From: a phage
Direction: 5' to 3' (one strand)
NCBI GenBank assembly: GCA_033286805.1
Contig: GCA_033286805.1_4727.1
Length of the DNA stretch: 64,000 nucleotides
The notes below the pieces were generated by a model that was not told where the DNA came from, made no database searches, and worked only from the letters and a program-made list of their open reading frames with translations. Numbering within the stretch: position 1 is the stretch's first letter; each line of letters opens with the position of its first letter. The position numbers and the translations under genes are program-made. This document shows, one piece after another, positions 7,009 through 63,955 of this stretch.

Positions 7009-8232
7009 TTATTTGGCGTCGTTAAAATAAATATCAACAGCTCGTTCCGTTGCGTAGAGGAGACCAAGATTCACAGTCCCAACCACTTCCGGTGAACCGA
7101 TGATACGGTTAGCGATACTGGTGCCACTGAAGATAGCATCAAGGGTGTGCCCGTCTTCGGTTTTGTTCACACCATGACCCACGGAAGAGACAACGGATTT
7201 CGCTTGAGCTGCGAAGGTACCTTTATCGCCCATCCCCGCACCAAGGTCGTAACGCATGAAAATACGGATGGCGATCTGGTTCTCGCCTAACGGATTACCG
7301 TCTATTCTCACGTTACTATTATTGATACGCCCCGTAGTTGCTTCGTTGAGTTTCAGTTCCTTAACGCGTTTAGCTCGTGCTTTATCCGCTTCACCGACGA
7401 GCGCCGCCATGGTTTCACTCATATCCTCAATCTGAGCGCGGTACAGTACATCGATCTGTACAACTTCACCATGAACGTCAGCACGTGGGTTATACTGACT
7501 CATACGACGTAATGCTTCAACGGCTTCCTGACTCTCATCACTCAGATCGGTCGCAATCGGTTCTTCCAGTGTTGCAAGGATCGTTCGTGGTTCAACATGA
7601 TCGCCGATTTTCACGAGACCACGAATGTTGAGATGAGCGTCAACAATGAGCGTACGGCTCTTAATCGATGGTGTTACGAGACGATCGGCAAGATTGTCGA
7701 AGATATACGAACTGTCCTCGTGAGTCTCTGGAATATCCAGAATACCGACAAGAGACAGAACACCTGCGCGCCAAACAACCTGACCTGGGTTCCACCAATC
7801 GCGTTTAAAATAAAGACGATGGAAGACCACCACATCCTGATCCTTAACGCGATCCCCGACTTTATAATCGGTAATGAGATCGTGAGGATAATACTTACCT
7901 GGTCCTTTCCCGATTATCGTACCGAGCTGGAAAACCTCTTCCCCTAACTCTGGATCGTCGTATTGTATCGTCAGCGCAGTTTTGGTGACCTTCTTAACAA
8001 CACCGTCACCTTGGGCGGCAGCTGCAAAGAGTTTACCAACACGATGCGCGATGACAGTCTCGCCACCCGTACGCCATGGTTGTACATCGTAACCTTCAGC
8101 AGCAATCATGCGGTTGTGCTGTATACCTATAAATACGAGACGCTTTGGCGAAATCCAGCAAAATACATTTACTGTGCGTCTGGATTGTTCAGATAAGGTC
8201 GTTAATCTTATCCCGGAGGCGATGACAGGCAC
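7009..8232 (-). CDS. Multisubunit RNA polymerase beta-like segment (middle region; probable downstream exon of a split beta gene)
   Basis: IQHNRMIAAEG...VQPW...RTGGETVIAHRVG resembles the bacterial beta HDDANRALMGANMQRQAVP...VGTGME region; MGDKGT...GHGVNK resembles GDKxxGRHGNKG; ORF opens only 3 codons upstream of a GTG. Confidence 0.6.
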   Translation of the reverse strand: MPVIASGIRLTTLSEQSRRTVNVFCWISPKRLVFIGIQHNRMIAAEGYDVQPWRTGGETVIAHRVGKLFAAAAQGDGVVKKVTKTALTIQYDDPELGEEVFQLGTIIGKGPGKYYPHDLITDYKVGDRVKDQDVVVFHRLYFKRDWWNPGQVVWRAGVLSLVGILDIPETHEDSSYIFDNLADRLVTPSIKSRTLIVDAHLNIRGLVKIGDHVEPRTILATLEEPIATDLSDESQEAVEALRRMSQYNPRADVHGEVVQIDVLYRAQIEDMSETMAALVGEADKARAKRVKELKLNEATTGRINNSNVRIDGNPLGENQIAIRIFMRYDLGAGMGDKGTFAAQAKSVVSSVGHGVNKTEDGHTLDAIFSGTSIANRIIGSPEVVGTVNLGLLYATERAVDIYFNDAK

Positions 8233-8609
8233 ACCGCCTCCCGCTTACGTTCTCACGCAAGAGCAGACTATATCACATCTCGTTTCAAACGGTGCTTCTT
8301 CAGCACCTCAACGAGAGTTCACTTCTTCCCAGCGCATCCAGCGCCATTCTCTTATCCAAGGAGAATGCCTCACTCGAGGGGTACCGGGGGATGAATCCCT
8401 TAGTCGTTGAACCTTTACCTTAGAACGCTTCACAGCGATCCTTAGGTACTTGGCTGCGGATTGTCCTTAAGCTATTATCTGTTTTTATAACCATACCGTC
8501 TTTCTTTTCAGAATCCGTTTTGGTCGATAACAGCGATGGATGTCTTCGCAATTCAGTGAATCTCATCTACATGTCGCCACATAGACGGACCCTGCTATTA
8601 AAAGCGTTA
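8231..8609 (-). ncRNA. Group I intron (ORF-less), approximate boundaries
   Basis: Minus-strand reading gives P-like GAAUUGCGAAG (about 8543-8556), Q AAUCCGCAGCCAAGUACCUAAGG (about 8447-8466), R GGUUCAACGACUAAGGG (8394-8414), S GAUAUAGUCUGC (8267-8276), in canonical order with GACUA/UAGUC P7 pairing; stop codon immediately at the putative 5' splice site. Confidence 0.75.
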
Positions 8610-11600
8610 ATCATCTCTGTCGGCAGCAGGTACTGCAAGTGCCGATGTACTCATTATTGACGAGCTACCATCCGTTTTCTCGTCGTAGGGTTTCGTTTCA
8701 CCGTATACAGACACAATGTTTGCGTTAGGTGCGAGGTAAGCAGAAATACCTACGTCCCCACTATCCTTCGTACCTTCGGATACAACACCAATGTCCGACT
8801 TGTCGTATTCACGATCGCGTGCGCGTCGAAGCGATGTCTTTGAACGACCCCCGATACCGGTCATCGTTGCTTCTTCACCCTGCTTGATATCCAACATCGG
8901 GTTGGTTTCATCGATCACGATGGAAGCGCTGTCGTCGAGAATTTGGTTCCAGACGCTTACCGGACTGATTGAGATTTTCTGGCGATTTCCTTGACTGCTG
9001 TTCTCATTCTGACGAATAGCGCCAACCAGATCCTTATACACCAATTCAGCGAACTTATCGTACGTTTTAAAACGTTGGTAGTTCACATCGTTGGTGTTAG
9101 GTGCCCAGTCATCCAGAAGCAGTTCAACAGCACGCAGTAACAACATGGCGAAATCGGTAGGTTCTCCCATGTTCTGTAGCAACGTACGGCTTACCGGATC
9201 AACGAAAAGACGCTCCATGAGTTCAAGTTCGCGTAAATGACGAACCTTAAGTCCAGCACCATCGACAACGTTAAAATAGATATCTCGATTGTCAAAAGCG
9301 CCGCGAGCGTAACCAATGTAGTTACGGTACTCGTTAAACCCACCCAGCAACAACGTCGTCATGCGATCGTCTTTACTGAAAATCAAACTTTCGTCGTCAA
9401 AGCTCACCGCGAATTCATCGGGTGCTAAACCCATACGAGAACCGCGAGGTACCGTACGATAGTTTGCTTTAAGATGTTCTAATAACGGGGTAAGTCCACC
9501 CAGATAACTTAGAACAACACCGACCGGAATACGTACACCCATGAATTCAAGATCGGCAGCTTCGATCGGCATCTTAGCCGCATTGATACCGAAGAAATCG
9601 GGGAACGTCCCTACAGGTGTTGGTGTTTGTCCTGACTGACAGATATAGAGCTGATTGCGTTTATCGATTGCTAAGAATTCACCCAGCGTGTTACGCGCAA
9701 ACGTCAGGAGCCCTTCGGCTAACTGTTCGTTGAACCGATCTTCCCCGATGAACTCCGGCAATGTTTTTATATCGAGACGTATATCCCAATCAGCAAATTG
9801 GATTTGGGTATAGTTGCGTGCAAGCACAGCGAAGTAATACGGGACTTTGACGGCCGGATCAAAGACGTTACCACGTTTTAACGTGGTTAAGGGTGAGGAC
9901 TTATCGTAATACATCGCCGTAAGTTGACGTGTTAGCCAACGACCGGCGTTATTAACGACGCGCTCTGAACGTTTAACAAACACCTTACCGTAGGCGGTAC
10001 TCAACGCAACTTCGGATGACGACACCTTTCTGATAGGTTTATCGACGCGTTGTTTACGCATCCGGTACTTGATGCCGTTAACGACATAAATGCCATCCTT
10101 ACGAACCTTCGGCAACATCACCGGGAACGTGGTTGGGACACCGCCTACAGGAGCCAGTTTAATCGTGATGACTTGATAATCCCCCATCACGTCAACAACG
10201 TCTTCGACTTTATAACCCGTAACAGGGTAACCTGCTTGCTGCACCGCAACAACGGCAGCTGCGATGTCCTTTTGCATCACGTGTTCAACGTAATGTTTAT
10301 CCCACACCGCAAGCGTCGATTTACATAGGCTCTTATCGACGATAACATCCGCTTCCGGCATAACCTTTGCTGGCGCTAATTTCGCGGCTTTTGGTTTAAC
10401 TTCAACATACTCAGCAAGTGTTAATCCAGAACCGTCGGGTGCTTCGATTTCGTGGATAGCGTCAGCATTACGCATCGCTGCTTTATATTGAACGCCGCTT
10501 AACTGACCCGCATCCGCCAGATCGCTCGCGCGCACCAACACCGCATCTGATAACGACTGAATATATTCACCGTGCGTTTTTGGTAACGTTGCCGCGTCAA
10601 AGACATCAACCTTTTCTTCTTCGGTATTGTCGGTAACGACTTCGAAGAGATCGTCAGTAATGTCCTGATCTTCATCGGGTTGGAAATCTGGTTGTACTTC
10701 TACCCCGGGTACTTCACGGACATCTTCGAACGAGCGTTCTACAATGGCGTTCCACGCATCAGCGTCATCGTCTTCATCCGACCCACCAACCAACTCCGCT
10801 TCTAACTCATCGGGATCAAGAACAGTGGCCAGATCCTCACCGTTAGGAAGCACGACGTCGCGATCATCGTACTCCGCATCCGGGCTGTCCGCAAGAATAT
10901 CTCGCTCTTGACGAAGAACCTGTTCCTCTTCTTGTTTCTGTTCTTCTTCATTCGCGCTCTGCGACCACAGACGTGTTACCGCCATCATCCAACGACGCTG
11001 GAAGGTTTCAAGTGTCGTTTTATCGAGTTCTTCCCCTTCCTTAACAAGCCCGGTACGCCATTCCTCCAGTAGACCAAGATTCAACGTAAAGAAGTACACA
11101 CCGTCTGTAAATACAACGTTAAGCTTATCCAGTGTGGCTCTGTCTAACGAAGCCATCGTGCTGTTCTCACGATCGGTTCCCAACCAGCGGAAGAAGTCAA
11201 AGAACGATAGCTCCTCCGGCGTGGCGAAATTCATGAGGTTGTTACGGGTCGGTGCCTGTTGCGTGGTACGCATCAACGAAATCTTCGGCAATGTTGACGG
11301 TATACGGAACAACAGAAAGTGTTGACGATCGCTTTGCTGTGCGATTTCGTTGGCTTTCGACCAAATTGTTTTACGCACGTTGAACCATTCATCATACCAA
11401 CGGGTGAGCGTTGGACGATAAATGTACATGTGGTTAAGATGCGCGTAGTTAGCAACGATCTGAGCGTTGATGTTTTTCTCCACCGCGCTCAGATCGGTAA
11501 CCAAACGAAAACGACGATGTGACGCACGATAATCCAATTTCGCTCGTGGGAGTTGGAATCGTTGATCACGTCGAGGTGCGCCCTGTTTGGTTGCGAGATC

Positions 11601-11816: not shown

Positions 11817-12494
11817 GGGTTAGGCTCCACGAGGTCCCGTTAAGTTGCGTAATAGGAACGCAACCGTATCGTAACCAATATCGATGTTGAATTTATTTTT
11901 ACCACTTACCCAGAAAGCTCGCTTCTTGTGCGAGTTGGTAATTTCGTCAATAGCTTCCATGGAATAAAGAACGTTAACCGAGACCGTATCACCGTCGAAC
12001 CTTGTCTTCGCCTCAGTTCGCTACGCTGAGACCGCCTGCATGGATACGTACATCACAGGCTGCTTGCACTTTCATGCAAGAGGAGACTATATCAAACCGG
12101 CAGCACAACCTGCTACGGTAACCTACACTTCGAAGACGCTTGTCCTCTACAGGGTGGTAAATCCCTTAGTCGTTGAACCTGCGTTGTTTCACATTCTTGC
12201 AAACAAGAATGCCGTATTACTACGCAACAACCAGGCTGCTGATCGCCCATTGTTTCGCACCTTAGCACCGCTTACGCGGCTTTTCTTTCAGCCTAAGCCT
12301 CTTACGGAGGTAGTGCATCTCAACTGTTGTTTCTGCCTTTCGGCACCTCATGGGTCGTTGAGCTTTAGGGGTTCCCAGCAATTCGTAGGTTTTTCAAGCA
12401 CTCTCTTTCGAGAATACCGGACCAATTCAGTTAGTAAACAACATTATTACCATCCCCCATTCTCAAGGGTTAATTTTTTAAAATGATAGAATTA
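11814..12494 (-). ncRNA. Group I intron (ORF-less, about 680 nt), approximate boundaries
   Basis: Minus-strand P-like AAUUGCUGGGAACC (about 12370-12386), Q AUCAGCAGCC (about 12231-12250), R GGUUCAACGACUAAGGG (12160-12180, identical 21-mer to the other intron), S GAUAUAGUCUC (12085-12094). Confidence 0.7.
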
Positions 12495-14230: not shown

Positions 14231-17200
14231 ATGGTAGATAAAACCCGTGTTGAGGGTGATGATAATTGGGACAACTGGGATGAAGACTTCTCCCTGGATC
14301 TCGATTTTAACGAACCCAAAGACGATCGTAAACCGATAACACGCTTTGCGATAGGAGCGGTTAAAGGTGCTGCTGAGGATCTTACTTCCTACGAAAGAAT
14401 GAAGGAGATCGCCAGAAACGCATTGCCTAAGGGCTACAGCGACGGTATGGATCTTATTGATTCCGCCGTCGGATCCACGAAGGAACTATACAATGAAGCC
14501 GTTCGTGACGTTCTTCCTAAGGTCCAAAGTTCAAAACGGTTAGCCGCACAACTGACCAAGAAATACCGTGCGAGCATGCCCGATTTCTCGAAGAAAATTC
14601 TTGAGCAATGGGAGCGAGAAGCCAAGGAAGAAGACGAACGTAAACAAGCTGAAGAAACCCTTCGTCAACGCATGGCGAGCGCGGGGGACGATGAGATCGC
14701 CCGCAAGGTTGCCGAGGTATTAGGCGAATCAGCAAACCAAAGCGCGGATCAGTTCGCTGAACAGCAAGCGAAAGAGAGTATCCGTGACGATATCGCTGAC
14801 AAACGGTACGCTGTAACCAACAAACAAATGAGTGCGATGCAAGAAGGCGTCGCCAAGATGGTTGGTTTCAACAACGAATTCGCTGCACGCTACATGCGTA
14901 AAAGCCTGGAACTGAAATATCGTTCCTTAGCGATTCAACGTGCAAGTTTTGATCAGCATAAAAAGTTAGCCGAAGTCTATATCGGTTTATTACAAAACAT
15001 CCAGAAGAATACGGCTTTACCTGATGCGGCTAAAGCAAAAATGTCGGAAGAATTCCGCCGTAGCGCGTACCAACGTTTCTTTGGTAATGCGTTAGATGCG
15101 ATGAGTTCTTTCGAGAACCGTTTCTTTGCCGATGTTAAGAAGAACCTCGCCACCAACGCATTAGGTGCTTTAAAAGGCGTCGTGTCCGGCGCAAACGATG
15201 CGTTATACGGTTTAAACGAAGCACGTGACTCGATGTCCATGATGGACGGGATGGGGTCAGAAGGCGATATTAAGGAAATGCAAGGAAAGATGTTGGGTCA
15301 GTTCATTGGCTCAACTGTCGCACCATGGATGGCTAATAAAGGCAGGATGGCGTTACGCGATTTAGCAAAACGTCACCCCAATGCTAAATTCGCTAGCGCG
15401 TTAAAAGCCGTGGATCAAGGTGGTGAGGCCGCCGCTTACACGACGCGTAATCTCGGTAAACTGCTCCAGGAAGATATTCGTAAGAACGAATTCAATCTTA
15501 GCGATCCTTTTTACAAGCAATTGTTACGCGGCGCAGGGCGTTGGGCGTTCAACATGGACAGCGGACGTAACTTCCGCGTGATGAACGACACCGCTGAAAC
15601 ACTGGCGGAGCAAACGTCTTTCGACGGTTTAACCTACCGCAGCATCAACGAGGTTATTCCAGGCTTTCTTGCACGCATTCTGAAAAGCAGTGAAGGCATC
15701 CGCACGGGAAACAGCGATCCTGACTACGAGGTCTATGACGGCATCAGCGGGCAATTCGTGTCTCAGCGCACGCGTGAACAAAGCGTCAATGACACGCTGT
15801 TTAACAAACGTACATTTGGTTATTACGCCAGCCGTTTCAATGAAGTCATCTCGGTCATCGATCCTGATAAGCAATTATCGGATAACGCAAGAAAAGGATT
15901 AGCAAAACAGCTAGCTCGTGACAGCGACGCAAACATTGCATTCGACCCGGCTCGTTTTACAGATGAAAGCAACTTCGATCGTAGTATCGACCGTGACGCT
16001 ATTAAGGAACTTTCTAATTACTTCCGTAACCGTTACGGTATCGACTACGTACCCGATGAAAAAGGACAACGCCATCAGGTCATTGGAAACCGCGGGCAAT
16101 ATTACACGGAACGTAACCGAGCGGATCTTCGCTACGGAAATCTGAAATCGTTACAACCGGATATCCAGCGTAACCTTAACCTACTGAAACGCACTGGTGA
16201 CGTCCAATATCTGGAACGTATTGGTATTGTAACGAGAAATAGCGACGGAAGTTACTCGGTTAATCACGATCGGTATTTCTCTGAAATCGATCGGTACATC
16301 GACCGACCGGAGTACGCTGACCGCGGCGATGTTAATACGCGATTAACCGCTCAGGAAACAAGAGCGCTGGCGCTGGGTTATCGTGACGCAAAACCGTCAG
16401 CTGGCGACGTCCAAAATGCGGGTCTGCCGAACATCGACCGTAAGGCTGCTGGAACAGTAACCATTGATGAAAACATCGGTTACGATAAATGGTGGAACGA
16501 CACAGGTGTTATCACCACATCGCTCGAAGAACAGAATCGAGCGTGGCAAGAACTTTATCTCGAAGCGTTGTCCGAAGCATCCGAACAACGTGTCGAAATG
16601 CTTGCGTTGCTGAAAGCCATTTCTGAGAAAGACTGGTCTAATAACGTTTCGCTGGATGGCGAAGATGTACCTGAAGGTACGGCACCCATTTCATTTATCG
16701 ATCGTGCCAAACAAAAACTCGGCACACGCAACCTCTTTAAAGGTGGTCGTAATCTCCTCTGGAAAGGAATTAAAAATACCGCACGTTTGGGTGTTAAAGG
16801 CGCGCGCTGGGGTGCAGAACGCACGTTGGGTAGTTTGGTAAATTCTGGCCGACGCATTATCAATTTCAACCGCTTCGTGTTCGGCGCATTATCCAAGGTC
16901 GATCAGGTTCCGTTTGACATTTACGTTAAAGGGGAATCCCAACCACGCATACTGGCTGCCAAACTTCGTCAGGGGTTATACTTCGACGAAGCGACAGGAA
17001 AAGCCGTAAAACGGATGAAGGATATCAAAGGCCCACTCGTTGATGCGGATGGAAACATCGTAATCAGCAACGAGGATATCGAGAAAGGGTTGGTCACTCG
17101 CGCTGGTCGTGCCTTTGATAATTCAGGACTTAAAGCATGGGCACGTGAAGGTCTTAATGGAATAACGACGGTATTAAGTCTCCCACGGATGTTAAAACGC

Positions 17201-25317: not shown

Positions 25318-25401
25318 GGCATCACCTATGTATCATTCTTGCAGGCATCAATGAAGCCATCACAAGAAGGTAACGTTATACGTCGCCTTCATGACTGTCA
25401 T

Positions 25402-25420
25402 CATGAAGGTAATATAGTCC
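25402..25420 (-). promoter_or_regulatory. Promoter-like conserved motif, copy 2 (catgaaggtaatatagtcc) in a divergent intergenic region
   Basis: Shares GGTAATATAGTC with the copies at 1711, 38520 and 51230. Confidence 0.4.
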
Positions 25421-25450
25421 TGTTATTTTTTTCAATACGGAGAATGTAAA

Positions 25451-35966: not shown

Positions 35967-35998
35967 CCCTCCTCCTTCCCTGTTGGGTTGGAGGAGGG
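35967..35998. terminator. Conserved stem-loop family member in inverted orientation (CCCTCCTCC...GGAGGAGGG) between convergent genes
   Basis: Reverse complement is nearly identical to the hairpins at 51964 and 63924. Confidence 0.55.
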
Positions 35999-36070
35999 TT
36001 ATGCCGTCAAGCAAAAAAAAAAAAATGATAGTCACAGGCTCTCCAATGAAGGAGAGCCGTGACCGTCAGT

Positions 36071-38497: not shown

Positions 38498-38519
38498 GAA
38501 TGAAATCTCGCTGGCTTAC

Positions 38520-38541
38520 TTCACTTAAGTAATATAGCCGT
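38520..38541 (-). promoter_or_regulatory. Promoter-like conserved motif, copy 3 (tcacttaagtaatatagccgtg)
   Basis: Near-identical over about 24 nt to copy 4 at 51230; 23 nt upstream of the minus gene start at 38497. Confidence 0.45.
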
Positions 38542-38629
38542 GAAAAATGTTGGAATAAGTTAAATACCGCAACCGCAGCTAATTTTATAGGCTTTTAGCC
38601 TAAACCAATCATCTTCGGAATCATCATCT

Positions 38630-49004: not shown

Positions 49005-49475
49005 TTATAACACGCCCCAAGCCATATTGGGTACAGGCTCGTTACGTTCGATGTAATACATCAAGCGTTCTTTAAGTTTGGTTAACGCCTCAGCAACGAT
49101 GTTCTCTATGGCGACGACCTTTTCCATATTGCTCATCGTATCCTTCCACGTGAACCATTCGATCAAATTAACGGTGTGTAAGACCTTGTTATCGTCGGTC
49201 ATAACCTGGGTATTTTCACGACGATCGCGGGTTGTATACAACGGCGTTTGTATATTCGTTTTAATACGTGTCCAAAGCTCTTCCAGGAACTCACTCGATC
49301 GACTATCTGCCGTGACGATAAGCTCACTACGTACTGATTGTTCTCCTCGCTTTTCAATAACAAATAAACCATCGTAATCGATGTTCATCAATTTACGGAG
49401 GTTATCATTGCTATTCCAGTCTTTTACAACGGCAGGAAGTCGGCTATTGTAACCTTCAGGCAATCTCTCAATCAT
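49005..49475 (-). CDS. hypothetical protein (156 aa)
   Basis: ORF. Confidence 0.45.
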   Translation of the reverse strand: MIERLPEGYNSRLPAVVKDWNSNDNLRKLMNIDYDGLFVIEKRGEQSVRSELIVTADSRSSEFLEELWTRIKTNIQTPLYTTRDRRENTQVMTDDNKVLHTVNLIEWFTWKDTMSNMEKVVAIENIVAEALTKLKERLMYYIERNEPVPNMAWGVL

Positions 49476-49905
49476 CGGTTTCTGCTCCTATATCACGTTT
49501 AAGGTCGGCCACCAGTTTTTCATAATGGTCTTTTATTACATTGGCAATAACGAATTGCACTTTTCTCACCAGCTGCTCATTGGCATCACTGAACGTAAGA
49601 TGCTCACGCACTTCAACCGGACGTGATACACCGCCGATATCGTAGACTTTGTTCGATGTACGGCGAGCAATCACTGGAAGCGGTTCCACGGCGGCCAGTG
49701 CAGTACAGATTTCCGTAACGAGTTCTTGAATGCTGCTTCTGCCTTCGATAATAACAGAACAGCGATAGACATCTACCTCGTTAAGCTGTTCAACGACATC
49801 AGCCTTGATTTTGAAATTTCCAATAAGCGAGCTCACCAAAGTGCTATGCCAGTTGTTCACCACCCCGACCAACAGCGGATGATTCTCAAGATCTCTTCTA
49901 TTCAT
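49468..49905 (-). CDS. hypothetical protein (145 aa)
   Basis: ORF. Confidence 0.45.
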   Translation of the reverse strand: MNRRDLENHPLLVGVVNNWHSTLVSSLIGNFKIKADVVEQLNEVDVYRCSVIIEGRSSIQELVTEICTALAAVEPLPVIARRTSNKVYDIGGVSRPVEVREHLTFSDANEQLVRKVQFVIANVIKDHYEKLVADLKRDIGAETDD

Positions 49906-50080
49906 CAGTTAGCTCCTAAATAGATCTACAACGAACTTTCGATGGAAGGGAGTATGTTTCCCTTCCTTGGGTTCGTTTATTGCGTTACGAAGCTTTACAG
50001 CTTGCGTAAACCACAACGGTTCCATTGTTGATTACCTCAACATCATCCTGGTCCGTTTGATCGCAAGTTTGGTGTCCGCA

Positions 50081-50425
50081 TTAACTCCCTCTGTGGTGCG
50101 AAAACAAAACATCTAACTGTTCCCGTTGTTCTTTTAAGCATGCAGGAAGCTGGTCTTCCCGTACCGTTCCGATTTCCAACGTGATGTACCAACGTTGTTC
50201 TGAGGCCTGCCATTGAAAACTGCTCTGTAACCGCAGGATGTTAGGATCACGTACCTTGTTTGCACTGTAACGGTTGAACCAATCCAGGTATTCTGCTTTC
50301 CCTTCCTCGTCGGCAACGTAACGCTGCACGCTGTTCTTCCCTTTGTTCTCGTATCCCGTTGCACGTATCATGCGAACGTTTCTCCTGTAATGTGTTGTGG
50401 GCGTTGTAGCATGGTAACATCCCAT
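50081..50425 (-). CDS. hypothetical protein (about 100-114 aa)
   Basis: ORF; overlaps the upstream gene, start uncertain. Confidence 0.4.
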   Translation of the reverse strand: MGCYHATTPTTHYRRNVRMIRATGYENKGKNSVQRYVADEEGKAEYLDWFNRYSANKVRDPNILRLQSSFQWQASEQRWYITLEIGTVREDQLPACLKEQREQLDVLFSHHRGS

Positions 50426-51150
50426 TGTACGATCCGGCTCCGGCTTACCAGCATCATGACGGATTCATCATCAAGCCCTGGTTGCGCAACCGGCAACCAA
50501 CGTTCGTTAAGCACCTTCGCTTCAACGCGTTTCTTGCGGGGATTGTAACGCACCTCGCTGACCCAAGCGAATCCAAGCGGATGCACAACCCGTGGATAAT
50601 ACATGCGAAGCAATTGATGCATTTGATCCATTGCCTCCAAGCTCGCATCCGCCAGGTAAGGTTTCACCATGGCAAGCTTTTTGGTGTAATACGTTCCAAC
50701 GGTATGGTTCGCCCACCCAGGAAGCGCGTGATGGAATCCTACCTGTAATTGTGTATTGCCGTTCACCTTCAGCCAACCGTATTGTCCCGCCGCACGTCCC
50801 TCGTCAGTATCGATCCATGTAAGTATATCGATGAACGCACGATCGGCGATCTCGATGCGTTCCACCCGTTCATCCAACGCACCACGTACCACGAATCCGC
50901 TCGCGCTCAGCCGTGCAGGATGCTGGCTACGATGTGCGTACCAATTCTTGTTGCCGGTAAGCAGGTAAGGATACAAGTGCGCACCACGCCAAACAACCTT
51001 TCCGTTCGTCCCGTCGACGCAACGTACACGCATCCCAGCCTGACCGCTGCTGTAGCATGCTACCCTCACGCATTCGTTTTGAACATCGCTCGGTAACGCC
51101 AGGTATTCATCTCCAGTAAACATGGTATCAAAAATCAATGCTTCTTTCAT
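50368..51150 (-). CDS. hypothetical protein (260 aa), first gene of the minus-strand operon
   Basis: Long ORF directly downstream of the large non-coding region and promoter-like motif copy 4. Confidence 0.5.
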   Translation of the reverse strand: MKEALIFDTMFTGDEYLALPSDVQNECVRVACYSSGQAGMRVRCVDGTNGKVVWRGAHLYPYLLTGNKNWYAHRSQHPARLSASGFVVRGALDERVERIEIADRAFIDILTWIDTDEGRAAGQYGWLKVNGNTQLQVGFHHALPGWANHTVGTYYTKKLAMVKPYLADASLEAMDQMHQLLRMYYPRVVHPLGFAWVSEVRYNPRKKRVEAKVLNERWLPVAQPGLDDESVMMLVSRSRIVQWDVTMLQRPQHITGETFA

Positions 51151-51229
51151 CTAAAAAGATCCTCTGTTTTTCACGTTAATTAAACAACGTATTGATTTCT
51201 ATTTGACACAATACGAACATTGTACGTAT

Positions 51230-51257
51230 CTATCACTTAGGTAATATAGTCGTGAAA
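51230..51257 (-). promoter_or_regulatory. Promoter-like conserved motif, copy 4 (ctatcacttaggtaatatagtcgtgaaa)
   Basis: About 80 nt upstream of the start at 51150; shares extended identity with copy 3. Confidence 0.45.
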
Positions 51258-51351
51258 GGATTTGCATTAAAGCAAGGGTTTTGTTTTTTAAGAAGGGATG
51301 GATTTAGAAGAGGTGTTTCAAGGAAGGTAAACGAGGATAGGTATTTTGATT

Positions 51352-51367
51352 TAAGTAAGTAAGTAAG
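51352..51367. repeat. (TAAG)x4 microsatellite
   Basis: Read directly: taagtaagtaagtaag. Confidence 0.8.
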
Positions 51368-51370
51368 ATG

Positions 51371-51516
51371 TTATCTGTATTTGTTAAAAGTGTATTGTCT
51401 AAGTTATCTTGTTTATCTTAGGTTATGTCTTATTGTTTAATCGTTTTATCTTTGTATGTTTAAGTTGTTTTATTTATCTTGTTTGTTTATTTAAAAGTAA
51501 GTTAATAAGCTTATCT
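51371..51516. repeat. Six direct TTATCT(T) repeats at roughly 30-35-nt spacing in a C-depleted T-rich tract
   Basis: Copies at 51371, 51404, 51413, 51446, 51474 and 51511; C is rare on the plus strand between about 51260 and 51520. Confidence 0.6.
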
Positions 51517-51733
51517 TCAAAACAATGGATAACATGTGTTTACCACCTTAACGGTAACACATGTCATCTGTGCATTACACTCCGCTATCACTTCGTTACA
51601 TGCTTATATGTTGGATAACTCAAAAAACATTTGTGATACTCTTCTTCACGTTGTTCATCAGAGTATCTCGTCTATACTCATTGCATTCGTATACGACATA
51701 ACCGTTATACGCTAACGCTACGCTTATAGCTTG

Positions 51734-51800
51734 ATAACTCTAAGGATAAAAACATAAACTCGCTTCGCTCGTTTAGTTTTTCTTTTTCTTAGAGTTATCC
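51734..51800. repeat. 12-bp inverted repeat GATAACTCTAAG ... CTTAGAGTTATC separated by about 43 nt
   Basis: Arms at 51734-51745 and 51789-51800; further GGATAAC-type motifs at 51527 and 51613. Confidence 0.55.
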
Positions 51801-51963
51801 TGTTGCTCGTCTCTAAAGGACTTCGCTCCTCCCCCGTCCCCCGAAGGGGCCGAGGTCGTGGAAATTTTACTTTCCAAATACATTTACAACATCTGTAAAC
51901 TTTTACTCCAGGTACTTAATCTTATCATTAGAAATTATAAAAGAGAATAAACACAAACATAAA

Positions 51964-51995
51964 CCTTCCTCCAACCCAACAGGGAAGGAGGAAGG
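51964..51995. terminator. Conserved stem-loop family member (CCTTCCTCC aacccaacaggg aa GGAGGAAGG) at the 3' end of gene 52012..52905
   Basis: Near-identical to the reverse complement of the 35967 hairpin and to the 63924 hairpin. Confidence 0.55.
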
Positions 51996-52011
51996 GAGAG
52001 ATTAATTAAAA

Positions 52012-52905
52012 TTAATCAGCGACGTTATAACCGAATACTGCTTTACCGTAGGTGTGAGTACCGTTAGCTAACGACAGCACCAGCACATGGTTGTACGTAG
52101 CGTTAACGCCCTTGTCAGTAGACTCGGTGGTAGCACCGTTATAGACAAAGGTAGCCGTTTGCAGATTGGCTTTCAGTTCATTGATGATATCATCACTTAC
52201 GCCGGTCTGCTCTTTGATCAGGGTGGTCAGGTTACCTGCTAAGCTTGCATCGATATTTACTTCGTTGCCAGTAATAGCTTGTAAACCTGGAGCGTAAGTA
52301 CTGAAGTCTAACGGATAGGTTAACAGACGTGCTGACGTTTTGGTACCATCGCCTTCATCAACGTAGGTTAAGTTACCCAGGTTGGTAACCTTGATGATGT
52401 TAGCCAGATCCAGCGTGGTGTTATAAACTTTAACTTGAACAGAGCCATACCACGCCAACGAATCTTCTTTGGCTTCCAGGGTGATCGTCTGGATACCTGA
52501 CTGATCAAAGGTAACCTGAGTAGCTAACGTTTCGGCTTTGATGTCTTTCGTTTTATCCAGGAACTTCTCACCGGAAGGCGTGATCATACCGTAGCGTTGA
52601 GCTACAAGGTCAACCACATCACCGATGGTGGTGTTCGCCTCAACGTTAACACGTACAGCGATCTTCTGGAACCACTTAGCCAGATCCAGACGATGGTAGG
52701 TGACATCGCGGTTATTGAAGTAAGGGGTACCTTCACCAGGACTAAGTGTTAAAGTTGCTTCTGGAGCAGAAGGATTCTTTTCTTTAAGGACGTATTTAAG
52801 GTCGGTGTATTTAAAGTTGGCACCAGTGTCGGCGTTGAGCTGGTTAATCTCATCAACGATAAGTTGCCAAGGTGTTTTTAAAGTAAGCGATACTTGAGCT
52901 GTCAT
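52012..52905 (-). CDS. hypothetical protein (297 aa), paralogous to 53048..53590; possibly virion-associated
   Basis: Shared segments with the neighbouring gene (TYHRLDLAKWF ~ YYDRLALSEVF; LAWYGSVQVKV ~ LVYTGTLQVAL). Confidence 0.55.
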   Translation of the reverse strand: MTAQVSLTLKTPWQLIVDEINQLNADTGANFKYTDLKYVLKEKNPSAPEATLTLSPGEGTPYFNNRDVTYHRLDLAKWFQKIAVRVNVEANTTIGDVVDLVAQRYGMITPSGEKFLDKTKDIKAETLATQVTFDQSGIQTITLEAKEDSLAWYGSVQVKVYNTTLDLANIIKVTNLGNLTYVDEGDGTKTSARLLTYPLDFSTYAPGLQAITGNEVNIDASLAGNLTTLIKEQTGVSDDIINELKANLQTATFVYNGATTESTDKGVNATYNHVLVLSLANGTHTYGKAVFGYNVAD

Positions 52906-53047
52906 TTTCTACCTCTATGGTTGTTACATCACTCTCAAAAGATGTAAGTGTTTACAGAAATAAGTATATTTTATATTAAATGTGAATAATATGGAGAACG
53001 ACTCCGAATCTCCTTTTCGACCATCAAAAATCAGAGGACACACAATC

Positions 53048-53590
53048 ATGGCCTTAGACTTTAACAAAGCAGCGAAATCCCTTCTGCTTGATCTTATCAA
53101 CACCAAAGCAACCCGTGCACTGGCCGAACAAGAACTGCAGTTCGGTACCCCGGGGGCATCTTCCGAACATGAAAAGAACACCGTTATTCAGCTGGACGCT
53201 GCGCCTGAAGCAGAAAACCTGCAGGGTAGTCAGCAGTTCTACTACGATCGTCTGGCTCTGTCCGAAGTTTTCGCTGATGTAACCGGCGACGTTACTTTCG
53301 AACTGCCGCACGGTACCGACAGCATCCAGGCTTCTGAACTGGTAAGCAAGCTGGTCACCAAATTCGGCCTGGCTTCCCTGAACGGTGAAATCAAAGAAGA
53401 AACCTTCCAGCTGTCTGCTGGTACTGTTGGTCAGGTAACTCTGAGTGCGATCGATAATGGTCTGGTATATACCGGCACTCTGCAGGTTGCTCTGACCTAT
53501 GCAGCAGCACCGAAAGACCAACTGGCAACTGTTCTGGCGGATAACGTAGCTGATGGCTTCGTGAAACCGACCGTTAGCGTTGTTGGCTAA
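53048..53590 (+). CDS. hypothetical protein (about 181 aa), strongly host-optimised codons, paralogue of 52012..52905
   Basis: Start placed at ATG 53048 after GAGGA RBS (ORF opens at 52982); codon choice almost exclusively CTG/CCG/GGT/ACC/GAA. Confidence 0.6.
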   Translation: MALDFNKAAKSLLLDLINTKATRALAEQELQFGTPGASSEHEKNTVIQLDAAPEAENLQGSQQFYYDRLALSEVFADVTGDVTFELPHGTDSIQASELVSKLVTKFGLASLNGEIKEETFQLSAGTVGQVTLSAIDNGLVYTGTLQVALTYAAAPKDQLATVLADNVADGFVKPTVSVVG

Positions 53591-56711: not shown

Positions 56712-59306
56712 TTATAACGTGACTGTACCTAATTTGGTTGTCTTATTGAGATTAATGACAGAGATCTGGGTATCGCTGGTCGTAATCGTTCCGATATTAA
56801 CGCGCTGTCCTTTATCATCTTCTTGCTTGTAGATGGTTAACTCCAGCTCTAACTGGTCGCCATTAGGAACAACGGAAACGTACCATGTTTTATTACCTGG
56901 TGAACTATTATAGTCTTTTAGGTTATAATGGCCTTTAGGTAAGGTCATGACCTTACCGGCAAACAAGCAAGTGATGTCTTCGTTGATGTAGATATCGTAA
57001 CCGGAAGCAGCAACGACCGTAGAAACCATGTAGACATGTTTGACGGTACCTGCGAGGTATTCGGCTACGCTTGGTCCGTATGCTCTGAATACCTGTCCAC
57101 CATTGGATAAACGGTACGCTTCCCCAAGGTCGACGTACCCCAGACCCCATACCGGATGGACGTTGTAACGACGTCCGCTGCTGGCCAAATACTCATAAAG
57201 GTCATCTACCGATAACCCAACCCACGCACCACTGGCGTTCTTAGCACCACGGAATTGAAAATCGTTTGCGTTTCCTGGAGTAGCAACGCGCACGGACATC
57301 GCCCCGGCGATTAACCAACCATCAGCGCATTTACGATACCCTAATGGTCCCCACGCCCCCAGAGTGTTGTCAATGTTATTGATTTGGTCCCGAAGCGTGT
57401 AAGTTACCGTTGTGACGACCCCCGTTACGGTAATGTTCCCTTCCCGAGCGCTGGTCGTCACTTCAGACGTCATGATAGCCGCCTTCCTGGAGACAGGATC
57501 GTACACCGATATGAACATCAAGCAGGGGGCCCCTGTGGACGCCGGAGGAACCACGATAGAGCCGCGTATAACGGAGTATCTCTCAAGCTTCGGCGACGTG
57601 TAGGTATCCCAACAAAGTTTGGCCGCTCTGTCGAGTTCTGCCTGCGTGATGCTTATCGATGCCCCCTTTAAGGCTAACGTATCAGGGTCGACCTCAACCC
57701 TGCTGCTTAATCTCCCTTCCTGTAGCCAACTGCCAGTCACTATCGTCTGGTCGTCGCTCATGTGAATTGTCGCGAAACGTTCGCTCACTGAACCGCCTAC
57801 GTGGACGCGACTGGTTGGCGGGAATCCCATCACATCGACCACGCTGTTCTTATAGCGATAACTCAAATCCCAATCAGCGGTTATTAACCGCTTTTCGAAA
57901 TTGCTCTGACCCCCTGGGATGCGGGATAAGACATAGACCTTGTTCTTCGCCGTGAAGCCAACGAAGCCGTGTGGGCCACAGGACCCAACAACGCGGTCCT
58001 TGATGTTAATCCAGTTCCCCACCTCGTACGCGGATATTGGGGTGAGTTTTGCAAGTTCGTCGAAGACATTACCAGCGTAGTCACCAATGCGATACGATCG
58101 AACCATCGGCGAGGCCAGGTTATCATTCACACAGCTGGTAACCAGACCGTCCTCGCGAATGACCATGTTCCCGGTAAGGTTGGCCCCACCCCATGCCCAG
58201 AATCCGTCTTTATAATCACGGTCACGAGTTGACATCGTACAAGGGCCACGAAAGGACACCGAACCATCGGAGTTCACTTGTAATGACGGCGTTCCAGCAT
58301 TGGGACTTAATGTCCATTGCTTCGTATCCAGGTTCAAATCGACGTACCAGATCGTTGTCCCCTGGTCGGCGATATTCACGGTACTGTTAGTGTACCATGC
58401 CGTCGTGCAGTAGATTCGCGCAATGTTACCTTTTACAACAGCGTAATTTCTAATACCCGCACGAATAGGGACAAGCGTCGTTAATTGACTAGGATACGCT
58501 GTATGGTTTAACACTTCCCAGAAAAGAATATGGTCGAGGTTGGTTTTCGTCGTTCCCTCAAAAATCTTTCCACTAAACCCGGTTTCTTTGGTGAACTGTA
58601 CAGCCGCACCATTTTTAATGTCCGATAACATACAGGTATGTACATCGAGCCCGTTTTTCCCTTCATACGCCCACCAGACTAACAGGTACACTTTGTTTTT
58701 GTAGACGAACGTACTACAGCGCGCCATGCTGTCGGTAATACCCTCTACCGACCCGGTACACATGGCGGCGACATGCTTCTCTACGTTGAATGTGCCGTTA
58801 GTCAGAACGATGTAGGGCTGTGTGTTCTCGTCGTTTGCGTCCATCGCGACACCCATCATCACGCCGTGGTTATGACACCAGACCGATTGTGGGATTTTAG
58901 GTAGTGCTGTAGGCCTATACTGGCGACTGGTACCTATGGCGGTATCGAGCAGCCCTTCACCATTGTTTTTACAGATAGCGTAATACACCCCGTTTTTCAT
59001 GCTGTTGGATGCCGAGCGAAGGATGGAAACACTCCCGTCTGCTTCCTGACAGATTCCGTAGGTACGACGTTCGGTCATGGCTATCGCGCCATCAGCTGAC
59101 CCTTCGATGGCGAGAGGGAAGTAACTTTGATCGCCAATTTGTTCGATATCGGTTACGTCAATATCAATGTACTTTTCCATCTCGGTGTTGAACTCTGCGG
59201 TGCTGTACGCGCCGAGATCGCCAGCCTTTAACCCTGTTGGATTGCTTCGACTAGCGATACGCTCAGTAACGCTGGTCACCAGTTCGCTAAATTTTTTCAT
59301 TGCCAT
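56712..59306 (-). CDS. large hypothetical protein (864 aa), possibly tail spike/receptor-binding
   Basis: Long ORF within the tail-fibre cluster; no motif recognised. Confidence 0.45.
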   Translation of the reverse strand: MAMKKFSELVTSVTERIASRSNPTGLKAGDLGAYSTAEFNTEMEKYIDIDVTDIEQIGDQSYFPLAIEGSADGAIAMTERRTYGICQEADGSVSILRSASNSMKNGVYYAICKNNGEGLLDTAIGTSRQYRPTALPKIPQSVWCHNHGVMMGVAMDANDENTQPYIVLTNGTFNVEKHVAAMCTGSVEGITDSMARCSTFVYKNKVYLLVWWAYEGKNGLDVHTCMLSDIKNGAAVQFTKETGFSGKIFEGTTKTNLDHILFWEVLNHTAYPSQLTTLVPIRAGIRNYAVVKGNIARIYCTTAWYTNSTVNIADQGTTIWYVDLNLDTKQWTLSPNAGTPSLQVNSDGSVSFRGPCTMSTRDRDYKDGFWAWGGANLTGNMVIREDGLVTSCVNDNLASPMVRSYRIGDYAGNVFDELAKLTPISAYEVGNWINIKDRVVGSCGPHGFVGFTAKNKVYVLSRIPGGQSNFEKRLITADWDLSYRYKNSVVDVMGFPPTSRVHVGGSVSERFATIHMSDDQTIVTGSWLQEGRLSSRVEVDPDTLALKGASISITQAELDRAAKLCWDTYTSPKLERYSVIRGSIVVPPASTGAPCLMFISVYDPVSRKAAIMTSEVTTSAREGNITVTGVVTTVTYTLRDQINNIDNTLGAWGPLGYRKCADGWLIAGAMSVRVATPGNANDFQFRGAKNASGAWVGLSVDDLYEYLASSGRRYNVHPVWGLGYVDLGEAYRLSNGGQVFRAYGPSVAEYLAGTVKHVYMVSTVVAASGYDIYINEDITCLFAGKVMTLPKGHYNLKDYNSSPGNKTWYVSVVPNGDQLELELTIYKQEDDKGQRVNIGTITTSDTQISVINLNKTTKLGTVTL

Positions 59307-63914: not shown

Positions 63915-63923
63915 CCAAACATA

Positions 63924-63955
63924 ACCCTCCTCCAACCCGTAAGGGAAGGAGGAGG
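63924..63955. terminator. Conserved stem-loop family member (CCCTCCTCC aa CCC GTAA GGG aa GGAGGAGGG)
   Basis: 9-bp outer stem, GUAA tetraloop on an inner CCC/GGG stem; immediately after the stop at 63914. Confidence 0.6.

Follow-up and report, generated by a model that had tools for sequence, protein, structure and literature searches.

An ultraconserved, hairpin-rich non-coding core in a large gap of Goslar-like phage genomes is a candidate structured RNA

What does the longest non-coding stretch of a Goslar-like phage genome carry? In the window (the whole 64,000-nucleotide stretch of phage DNA that was analysed), the gap at 51151–52011 is a composite: ordinary minus-strand signals occupy its ends, and together with them lies one unexplained conserved element. 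Sequence comparisons indicate that this core, at 51629–51926, is under strong purifying selection. We favor, at a probability of roughly 45%, the reading that a structured non-coding RNA is encoded on the minus strand, with the core as its gene or as its 5' domain. The original prediction had placed its interest in the C-poor, repeat-bearing half of the gap; the constrained part is the core to the right of that half, where one inverted repeat had been noted.

Layout of the gap

The gap is 861 nt long and lies between the minus-strand ORFs 50368–51150 (the gp021 side, left) and 52012–52905 (the gp022 homologue, right). It is non-coding, as predicted, and by a crude ORF map it is the longest such stretch of the window, the runner-up having 665 nt. 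Its Goslar homologue, of 854 nt (14,972–15,825), is the largest unannotated gap in the Goslar record. We found no paper discussing this region, and the jumbo-phage reviews and transposon-mutagenesis papers that we searched do not mention the locus. The features of the gap, with the evidence for each, are as follows:

51151–51234, minus strand: 5' untranslated leader of a leftward small-gene operon, homologue of Goslar gp021 to gp014 (sequence, conservation)
51228–51265, minus strand: early promoter of the virion-RNA-polymerase (phiKZ) type, TTTCACGAC-TATATTAC-CTAAGTGA (motif count, weight matrix)
51266–51520, no strand assigned: tract depleted of C on the plus strand (of G on the minus strand), 26% G+C, with (TAAG)4 and six TTATCT (composition, comparison)
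51527–51571, minus strand: 17-bp hairpin followed by CCAUUGUUUUG, terminator-like (fold, sequence)
51621–51626, minus strand: T tract of 5–9 T depending on the genome, candidate 3' end (alignments)
51629–51926, minus strand: ultraconserved, hairpin-rich non-coding core (alignment, folding)
51636–51668, 51670–51697, 51704–51730, 51733–51799, 51829–51858, 51859–51876 and 51883–51899, minus strand: local hairpins of the core (predicted fold)
51895–51906, no strand assigned: palindrome GTAAACTTTTAC, of the form GTAAA-NN-TTTAC, invariant in 19 of 19 genomes (alignment)
51958–51961, minus strand: TATG immediately past the terminator hairpin; the non-virion RNA polymerase may start at its G51958 (motif recurrence)
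51964–51995, minus strand: terminator hairpin of the virion-protein gene (gp022 homologue, DUF7941), CCTTCCTCC...GGAGGAAGG with a T-rich tail (copies, Goslar annotation)

The promoter-like motif and the terminator hairpin between which the original prediction had placed the region are both real, both on the minus strand, and both recurrent elsewhere in the window. On the left, the operon leader contains a ribosome-binding site (AGAGGA, 51160–51165), a conserved block (51169–51208), and an insertion hot spot near 51226–51232, where some relatives carry inserts of 20–60 nt. Upstream of it, the central promoter motif TATATTAC is one of seven copies in the window, all on the minus strand, against 1.9 expected; a full-text literature search with this motif returned unrelated papers only. 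Promoters of the phiKZ early type start transcription about 6 nt downstream and are active early. With a weight matrix built from eight Goslar sites, including one upstream of the nuclear-shell gene chmA, the site in the gap scores 43.7 bits, and the only four window sites above 12 bits all lie upstream of minus-strand genes. The motif thus agrees with the virion-polymerase promoters of phiKZ-like phages, which are extended, conserved and AT-rich (PMC5312081), and its consensus recurs ahead of early genes. It does not drive the region: it fires leftward, away from it, into the small-gene operon.

On the right, the gp022 terminator has the form of an intrinsic terminator, its 9+3-bp stem leading, on the minus strand, into TTTATGTTTGTGTTTATT; a simple terminator scan missed it because its loop is longer than the limit of the scan. 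Hairpins of this type also occur at 35970–36000 and 63923–63953 in the window, one of them at a gene end, and in 8–9 intergenic copies in Goslar, two of which are annotated there as terminators. The TATG that follows is found in 16 of 19 genomes; the other three have TATA. A hairpin followed by TTTATGC(C/T)G (or TTTATGGCG) stands at 15 intergenic places in Goslar; the TATG at the gap is without the C(C/T)G seen after it at the other Goslar sites. Late promoters of phiKZ are TATG, with the start at G (PMC4666361, PMC5312081). Within the phiKZ promoter set (early AT-rich, middle AAanTTACc, late TATG; PMC4666361, PMC5312081), the left-end promoter matches the early type and the TATG the late type; the Goslar promoter consensus sequences were derived from sequence alone.

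Between the C-poor tract and the core, the terminator-like hairpin at 51527–51571 is absent in at least 4 of 19 genomes. The GGATAAC-type motifs of the original prediction are present as TGGATAAC at 51526 and 51612. We considered TGGATAAC as a DnaA box and dropped the idea: the match by eye is 7 of 9, and host proteins are expected to be shut out of the phage nucleus. The T tract at 51621–51626 falls exactly at the left conservation edge of the core, 7 nt past the hairpin at 51636–51668.

The C-poor tract and its repeats

The plus strand at about 51260–51520 is as depleted of C as had been predicted (A74 C15 G53 T119 over that interval). In the 260 nt from 51255, C makes up 5.0%; the mean for the window is 24%, and the next-poorest stretch has 13%. 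The homologous tract in Goslar, with 5.8% C, is the extreme of the whole 237-kb genome, where the next value is 13.1%. Read as minus-sense RNA, the tract is nearly structure-free (its minimum free energy is −8.9 kcal/mol for 255 nt, where the window averages −68 ± 10), and over 51250–51350 that RNA is G-free and pyrimidine-rich. Among relatives the tract changes rapidly in sequence and length and retains its composition. No other part of the locus varies as much across 19 related genomes; indels are many, and identity is 68–93% at partial coverage. The 69-aa ORF at 51409–51618, already suspected of being non-coding, lies in this most variable stretch and is broken by indels of 1, 2 and 10 nt relative to Goslar; thus, it is not coding.

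The predicted repeats themselves are there: (TAAG)4 at 51352–51367, and six TTATCT copies at 51371, 51404, 51413, 51446, 51474 and 51511. The number given for TTATCT was right; the spacings, put at about 30–35 nt, are 33, 9, 33, 28 and 37, and so not regular. Besides (TAAG)4, the sole period that a tandem-repeat search (TRF) reported was a weak one of 23 nt (2.3 copies, 77% matches). A repeat array resembling a type III antitoxin or decoy RNA was rejected, since TRF detected no near-identical tandem units of ~34–45 nt. The composition of the tract would also suit a Rho loading site; we note this as a remark only, as host Rho is not expected to reach nuclear transcription.

Could the TTATCT copies be the iterons of a replication origin, as had been proposed? 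They resemble the iteron origins of plasmids and phages in being direct repeats in AT-rich non-coding DNA beside inverted repeats: all six lie within 146 nt, almost all C's of the tract fall inside them, and the G+C content of 25–32% over 51100–51500 supplies the AT-rich, easily unwound region that such an origin has next to its repeats. Iterons, however, are three or more helically phased repeats of ~17–22 bp, whereas the units here have 6–7 nt in common (longer registers are 71–85% alike) at irregular distances of 9–37 nt. Nor is their number conserved, with 0–6 copies in the 12 related genomes counted and deletions of 27, 73 and 88 nt. No initiator-like gene is recognized nearby, and the flanking small proteins have no Pfam match. 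The full-genome skew analysis suggested in the original prediction was run on Goslar, where cumulative GC skew has its minimum at 215,114, its maximum at 140, and only a local bump at 15 kb; it shows no turning point at the locus, a weak test because skew in such phages mostly follows gene orientation. Because only composition is kept among relatives, we do not regard the tract as an iteron array, and we rate the iteron origin as highly improbable, since comparison among the relatives already goes most of the way to refuting it.

Conservation and folding of the core

How strongly is the core conserved? In 18 relatives its identity is 93–100%, against 77–95% for gp022 and 71–95% for gp021, and the difference per bin is 0.1–6% in the core and 11–47% in the rest of the gap. 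In none of the 18 comparisons is another segment better conserved, and in only one is there a tie; this includes genomes whose flanking genes are only 77–81% identical. Two core haplotypes exist among the relatives, along with recombinants between them, a pattern that speaks for constraint over a long time and against a single recent sweep. The phage contigs bearing the core come from Escherichia coli, Salmonella and Shigella assemblies and from metagenomes.

The core is confined to this group of phages. We found no further copy in the window or in Goslar and none in IMG/VR outside Goslar-like contigs, where a 16-mer scan gave 56 extra loci that were all due to chance. GTDB genomes contain neither the core nor its long hairpin, and no relative of gp022; megablast and blastn against E. 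coli genomes and plasmids showed no similarity to the core. In the phage collection the element matches Goslar alone, and close relatives of the flanking proteins were likewise limited to Goslar there. In two sister-clade contigs, the homologous junction consists of the terminator and TATGCCG and then, within ~10–20 nt, the early promoter, with nothing between. The ~700 nt that separate terminator and early promoter in Goslar-like phages are therefore probably a clade-specific insertion, as judged from these junctions.

Six-frame translation of the core gives interrupted frames throughout and no credible ORF. Over 50000–53500, the Rfam 15 covariance models yielded no match even at E ≤ 1; at gathering scores, the whole window holds only two group I introns, away from the locus. 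ARAGORN found no tRNA or tmRNA at the locus. A scan of the locus for sigma-70 promoters and terminators did not rise above shuffled sequences and gave no canonical terminator at the end of the core. The template repeat of a diversity-generating system and an antisense regulator were discarded, as similarity and complementarity to the window or Goslar do not exceed 16 nt. We also dropped a CsrA-type GGA sponge, the GGA count by hand being about that expected from composition.

The core is predicted to fold into ~8 hairpins, with z-scores of −5.6 on the minus strand and −4.9 on the plus strand. Among these hairpins is the perfect 12-bp inverted repeat of the original prediction, one base off the position first given; its arms (51733–51744 and 51788–51799) extend to a 67-nt imperfect hairpin. 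Compensatory changes occur in these stems. At a polymorphic hairpin tip, both sides change in 5–7 genomes (pair 284:290 from AU to GC, pair 285:289 from UA to CG), and in the GC-rich hairpin a C-G pair becomes U·G in five genomes and U-A in one. Across 19 genomes there are both-sided changes at three core pairs and several one-sided changes to G·U, with little variation overall; in the 12-genome set, one pair changed on both sides, a result equalled by 39 of 500 shuffles. Covariation is thin because the core barely varies.

Which strand would fold? Among pairs common to the predictions for both strands, all three variants that alter one side only give G·U when read on the minus strand and A·C when read on the plus; including the GC hairpin, the vote is 4 to 0 for minus (p of about 0.06, one-sided). 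Fold energies and mirrored structures were set aside as a guide to the strand, since each strand favors its own prediction. Most stems are pure Watson-Crick palindromes that would form in DNA or in the plus strand too, and in one genome a hairpin loop is flipped (TTCG in place of CGAA), a DNA-level event that favors neither strand. Loops and linkers are conserved along with the stems, which exceeds the need of a simple hairpin array. The only repeated potential binding site inside the core is GATAACTC, present three times, two of these being the arms of one hairpin. The invariant palindrome GTAAACTTTTAC occurs five times in Goslar against 0.33 expected (four copies intergenic, one at a gene 3' end); the four outside the locus comprise three intergenic copies and the one at a gene 3' end, and two of them adjoin DNA-polymerase genes. 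This palindrome resembles the phiKZ middle-promoter motif AAanTTACc (PMC4666361).

Competing readings and the candidate RNA

The core could instead be a cis-acting DNA element, a cluster of protein-binding palindromes serving as an origin, packaging or partition site, with the C-poor tract as melting region and the early promoter for transcriptional activation. We consider this unlikely, though worth keeping in view. It would suit the place of the core in the largest non-coding gap of the genome, the perfect Watson-Crick form of most stems, the dimer-binding-site form of GTAAA-NN-TTTAC with its recurrences, the constraint that loops and linkers share with the stems, the extreme strand asymmetry of the AT-rich flank, and the loop inversion. 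RNA-primed initiation is also conceivable, because Goslar replication requires an RNase H domain in the polymerase complex (PMC13648698). Against a DNA element stand the lack of a skew turning point at the locus and the absence of the core from the sister-clade junctions, where an essential origin would have to lie elsewhere; in addition, the core is without repeated binding sites beyond the GATAACTC copies, and its G·U intermediates and a stem tip flanked by GA/AG suit RNA better. A structured RNA read rightward from the plus strand, ending near the GC hairpin or the gp022 terminator hairpin, seems less probable still. The plus-strand fold is significant, two plus-strand genes have related sequence upstream (gp245 the 16-mer TCTGTAAACTTTTACT itself, in plus orientation, and gp069 a similar site), and the depletion of C would fit a frequently displaced non-template strand. 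Yet upstream of the core there is neither a conserved promoter-like motif (a plus-strand TATATG at 51605, just before the core, was rejected, not being conserved in relatives) nor a match to the early-promoter matrix, no plus-strand hairpin has a T-rich tail, and all four one-sided stem variants are A·C mismatches on this strand.

That the core has no function of its own, being a spacer or the remnant of an old insertion homogenized by recent recombination, is very unlikely. Divergence among Goslar-like genomes is mosaic, and the perfect window–Goslar run at the core, of 314 nt, is exceeded by seven others and equalled by one; but the core tops conservation in nearly every comparison, also where the flanking genes are only 77–81% identical, two haplotypes with compensatory differences persist, and the adjoining non-coding DNA is hypervariable. 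We give almost no credence to a very small protein, for which the one intact ORF of the core (36 codons, 51883–51773, minus strand) would be the example. This ORF is intact in 19 of 19 genomes, but it has no ribosome-binding site and no synonymous excess (the few differences among relatives include non-conservative ones, with S to P and Q to H among the changes), the loop flip rewrites four of its codons, and conservation reaches well past it on both sides.

A non-coding RNA or leader, one of the candidates in the original prediction, is the best class of explanation for the region, and we infer the transcription, strand, ends and mode of action of the minus-strand RNA as follows. Minus-strand signals bracket the core, with the terminator and TATG on one side and, on the other, the T5–9 tract at the conservation edge, and both flanking genes lie on the same strand. 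The two end signals are non-canonical, as the U tract lies 7 nt from its hairpin and the TATG is without C(C/T)G. The RNA would start at the TATG after the terminator, near 51958, or alternatively ~24 nt downstream of a GTAAAAGTTTAC motif, at ~51875–51881. It would fold into ~8 hairpins and end at the U tract 51626–51621, or at the next hairpin and its U-rich tail near 51520, giving a length of roughly 260–440 nt, of which we favor 260–340 nt; in Goslar it would fall at about 15,440–15,790. The fast-evolving, G-free, structure-free tract would separate it from the early promoter. Such an RNA may serve as a protein-binding scaffold or decoy, or else as a leader or attenuator controlling late read-through into the early operon. 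It would more likely act through its fold than as an antisense RNA, because no long complementarity to phage or E. coli DNA turned up.

How does this candidate compare with known systems? GOLLD and ROOL are large, conserved, structured RNAs of phages and prophages that form Rfam families and whose function was long unknown; the core is smaller, restricted to one genus, and without an Rfam match. ColE1 RNA II serves an RNA-primed origin and is G-rich where it is hybridized. It shares with the locus a multi-hairpin RNA domain followed by a tract of strongly skewed composition, and RNase H is needed in the phage replication complex too (PMC13648698). In contrast to RNA II, the minus-sense RNA is G-free and pyrimidine-rich at 51250–51350, which makes for the least stable RNA–DNA hybrid, and there is no skew signal. 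In phiKZ and 201phi2-1, ONT-cappable-seq revealed small RNAs derived from intergenic regions and 5' UTRs (PMC11512511, PMC10914365). Like the candidate RNA, these belong to nucleus-forming jumbo phages, are non-coding, and lie between a start site and a nearby terminator, and some are conserved by position among related phages. They are shorter than 250 nt and were found from transcripts, whereas the core, known so far from its sequence, is larger and has many hairpins; unlike them, it has no sequence relative outside the Goslar group.

More tentatively, we suggest that Goslar-like nucleus-forming phages may carry a genus-specific, near-invariant structured-RNA gene of ~300 nt that falls outside all described families and has a G-free, structure-free RNA tract coupled to it. 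Its product would be made in the phage nucleus and would act through its fold, for instance by serving some host or phage protein as scaffold or decoy, or by working as a switch that gates late read-through into the early operon. For the transcription map of this phage group, the analysis has two by-products, a 38-nt early-promoter consensus and a recurring terminator-then-TATG module. Goslar is the E. coli model for nucleus-forming phages, and RNA-seq, dCas13d knock-down and Cas13-selected recombination have already been applied to it; a published RNA-seq time course, covering 5–60 min, describes its results at the gene level (PMC10541120). The core evolves more slowly than the neighboring virion and early genes, and this makes a new functional RNA, or else an essential cis element, a strong candidate for what it is.

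Locus and related copies

What does the longest non-coding stretch of the window hold? The original prediction had singled out this gap (51151-52011), and at 861 nt it is indeed the longest, the next reaching 665 nt. It corresponds to 14,972-15,825 in Escherichia phage vB_EcoM_Goslar (Goslar), where it is the largest unannotated gap of the record. The flanking genes, both on the minus strand and with no annotation between them in Goslar, are gp021 (a hypothetical protein, first of eight small genes in a row) and gp022 (a virion structural protein, DUF7941). In the phage collection, the gap region matched Goslar alone (93.5% over 951 nt), and sensitive blastn of that collection found no match beyond it; overall, the window and Goslar are 95.9% identical. 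The locus is not mentioned in the literature searched; an RNA-seq time course of Goslar exists (PMC10541120).

We compared 18 related copies of the locus, from Goslar, two IMG/VR contigs, eight metagenome contigs, and seven further contigs found via gp022 homologues and their encoding contigs (one a Salmonella assembly). Their gp022 DNA identity to the window is 77-95%. Two contigs (L078 and L082), with a gp022 relative at only 50-52% amino-acid identity, form a sister clade. Goslar-like contigs of up to ~245 kb, including L081 (GCA_007261085.1) and those behind protein matches P0007, P0016, P0017, P0028, P0033, and P0045, were found in assemblies labelled Salmonella enterica, Shigella flexneri, and E. 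coli. Lytic phages are reported in bacterial isolate assemblies, and Goslar-like contigs there fit.

Elsewhere in the window, blastn found no Goslar counterpart for 49155-50116 or 57033-58966; replacement appears to have affected a portion of the early small-gene operon and a portion of a large structural gene. An Rfam match to a group I intron (RF00028, 55 bits; 8244-8611, minus strand) is the second such intron in the window, and the segment around it (8147-8609) is missing from Goslar at that position. The other, at 12063-12447, is the counterpart of an intron annotated in Goslar.

Early promoter, terminator, and the sequence between them

The window holds seven copies of the motif TATATTAC (1.9 expected), all on the minus strand, and four of the seven sites have a longer, 38-nt consensus in common (TTTCACGGC-TATATTAC-TTAAGTGA). 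The features at the two ends of the gap, with the other consensus sites, are as follows:

1709-1746, 25396-25433, 38516-38553, and 51228-51265, all minus strand: strong matches to the early-promoter consensus
51151-51234, minus strand: leader of the gp021 operon, with a ribosome-binding site at 51160-51165
51995-51964, minus strand: gp022 terminator hairpin with a T-rich tail

Goslar has the consensus ahead of its nuclear-shell gene chmA and of other genes. Scored with a weight matrix from eight Goslar sites, 51265-51228 reaches 43.7 bits, and no site in the rest of the gap reaches 12 bits on either strand. Published phiKZ-like virion-polymerase promoters are extended, conserved, and AT-rich, with transcription starting ~6 nt downstream (PMC5312081). 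The site at 51228-51265 agrees with these; it is predicted to be an early promoter that faces away from the gap and drives the gp021 operon leftward. Just downstream lies an insertion hot spot (~51226-51232), used at the same point in L006, L011, L015, L016, and L086; the inserts in several relatives are 20-60 nt long, and some are palindromic (CATCATGAA...TTCATGATG), resembling a miniature mobile element.

The terminator hairpin has two further copies in the window and 8-9 in Goslar, two of which the Goslar record annotates as terminators. The predicted placement of the region between a promoter-like motif and a terminator hairpin is borne out at both ends, as early promoter and gp022 terminator. 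TATG directly follows the hairpin in 16 of 19 genomes (TATA in the other 3), and the bases after it are unlike the Goslar consensus. Goslar has 15 intergenic sites at which a hairpin leads directly into TTTATGC(C/T)G or TTTATGGCG, with the next gene beginning 3-306 nt downstream. In phiKZ, the G of TATG is where the non-virion polymerase begins transcription (PMC4666361, PMC5312081), and the hairpin-TATG module has the appearance of a terminator fused to a late start site. Its hairpin is G+C-rich, often with a UUCG loop (e.g., Goslar 55080, 110468, 132984, 140970, and 180586; window 51958-51995).

At the sister-clade junction, the terminator and TATGCCG are followed after at most ~10-20 nt by an early promoter (TACATTACCTAGGTGA); neither of the intervening elements of the gap (i.e., the C-poor tract and the hairpin-rich core) is there in L078 or L082, for which 4-9 kb were covered. 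The ~700 nt between terminator and early promoter are, on this sequence comparison, probably an insertion.

The C-poor tract

The reported C depletion is real: 51260-51520 holds 15 C in 261 nt, and the lowest-C 260-nt stretch of the window has 5.0% C (mean 24%, next lowest 13%). The homologous tract is likewise the lone extreme of the complete Goslar genome (5.8%, next 13.1%). The (TAAG)4 run, six TTATCT copies, two TGGATAAC motifs, and a 12-bp perfect inverted repeat were all recovered. The TTATCT copies hold up in number, not as a regular array, their spacing being irregular (33, 9, 33, 28, and 37) and their common unit only 6-7 nt.

The original emphasis on these repeats is the reverse of the conservation pattern, in which the core is constrained and the repeats vary. 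From the C-poor tract through ~51620 lies the most variable part of the locus (20-47% difference per 40-nt bin, indels counted), with 0 to 6 TTATCT copies in the 12 genomes counted and deletions of 27, 73, and 88 nt among relatives. Composition alone is kept, at 8-12 C per 200 nt where the tract is present. As minus-sense RNA, the tract is predicted to be nearly structure-free (-8.9 kcal/mol over 255 nt; window mean -68 +/- 10, the least stable of 160 other segments being -20). Its composition reflects either local mutational bias or selection, the latter either for an unstructured G-free RNA or for DNA that melts readily ahead of the early promoter.

The suggested iteron or origin role is not supported, the repeats being neither iteron-like nor conserved. 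Nucleotide skew across the full Goslar genome does not turn at the locus, no initiator-like gene is adjacent, and both sister-clade contigs lack the region at this junction.

A conserved, hairpin-rich core

Eight relatives carry the core (51629-51926) unchanged (100% identity), and in nine others its identity is 93-99.7%; the most divergent copy, in L013 (90.9%), is about equal to its gp022 (91.0%). With L013 excluded, the core exceeds gp022 (77-95%), gp021 (71-95%, often alignable in part only), and the promoter region (71-96%) in each comparison. Perfect runs of its length are not rare in the window-Goslar pair alone. Because there are two core haplotypes, plus recombinants between them, the conservation points to long-term constraint and not to a single recent sweep.

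What is being conserved? The reading we favour as most likely, at a probability of roughly 45%, is a minus-strand structured RNA that is so far undescribed. The core has no credible ORF, no tRNA, no Rfam family match at E <= 1, no second copy in the window or Goslar, no relatives in IMG/VR or GTDB genomes beyond Goslar-like contigs, and no similarity to E. coli genomes. It folds better than shuffles on both strands (z = -5.6 minus, -4.9 plus), into about eight predicted local hairpins that variants respect where the core varies. At the polymorphic tip of hairpin 51670-51697, 5-7 genomes have both partners replaced in two pairs (AU to GC, UA to CG), and one genome shows a G·U intermediate. The GC-rich hairpin (51829-51858) includes a C-G pair that is replaced by U·G in five genomes and by U-A in a sixth. 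Three one-sided variants fall in pairs formable on both strands; each gives G·U when read on the minus strand and A·C when read on the plus. Adding the GC-rich hairpin brings the count to 4 to 0 (about p = 0.06), which is suggestive of the minus strand but short of proof. A shuffle control on the 12-genome set was non-significant (39/500), and a mirrored-structure comparison proved uninformative as a strand test.

The main rival, which we consider unlikely, is a cis-acting DNA element. Most stems are perfect palindromes, and one of them recurs in Goslar:

GTAAA-NN-TTTAC palindrome: window 51895-51906; Goslar 15706, 81200, 173087, 176758, and 188961

These five Goslar copies compare with 0.33 expected; four lie between genes and one at a gene's 3' end. 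Two are close to the pair of DNA-polymerase genes, and another falls in the divergent region separating chmA and gp245. The palindrome resembles the phiKZ middle-promoter motif AAanTTACc, centred at -24 (PMC4666361), and is a possible operator or promoter; if a promoter, its minus-strand start would fall near 51875-51881.

On the minus strand, a T5-9 tract sits exactly at the core's left conservation edge, and beyond it most genomes have a strong hairpin with a U-rich tail (51571-51518). Because GATAACTC is present three times (51613-51621, 51733-51740, and 51792-51800; two copies direct and one inverted), the long hairpin could pair through its 5' arm with the distal copy just past the U tract; at least four relatives have other sequence in place of that copy, and such a switch is therefore doubtful. 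Overall, the gap is a composite of early promoter and leader, fast-evolving C-poor spacer, ultraconserved hairpin-rich core, and terminator-TATG module.
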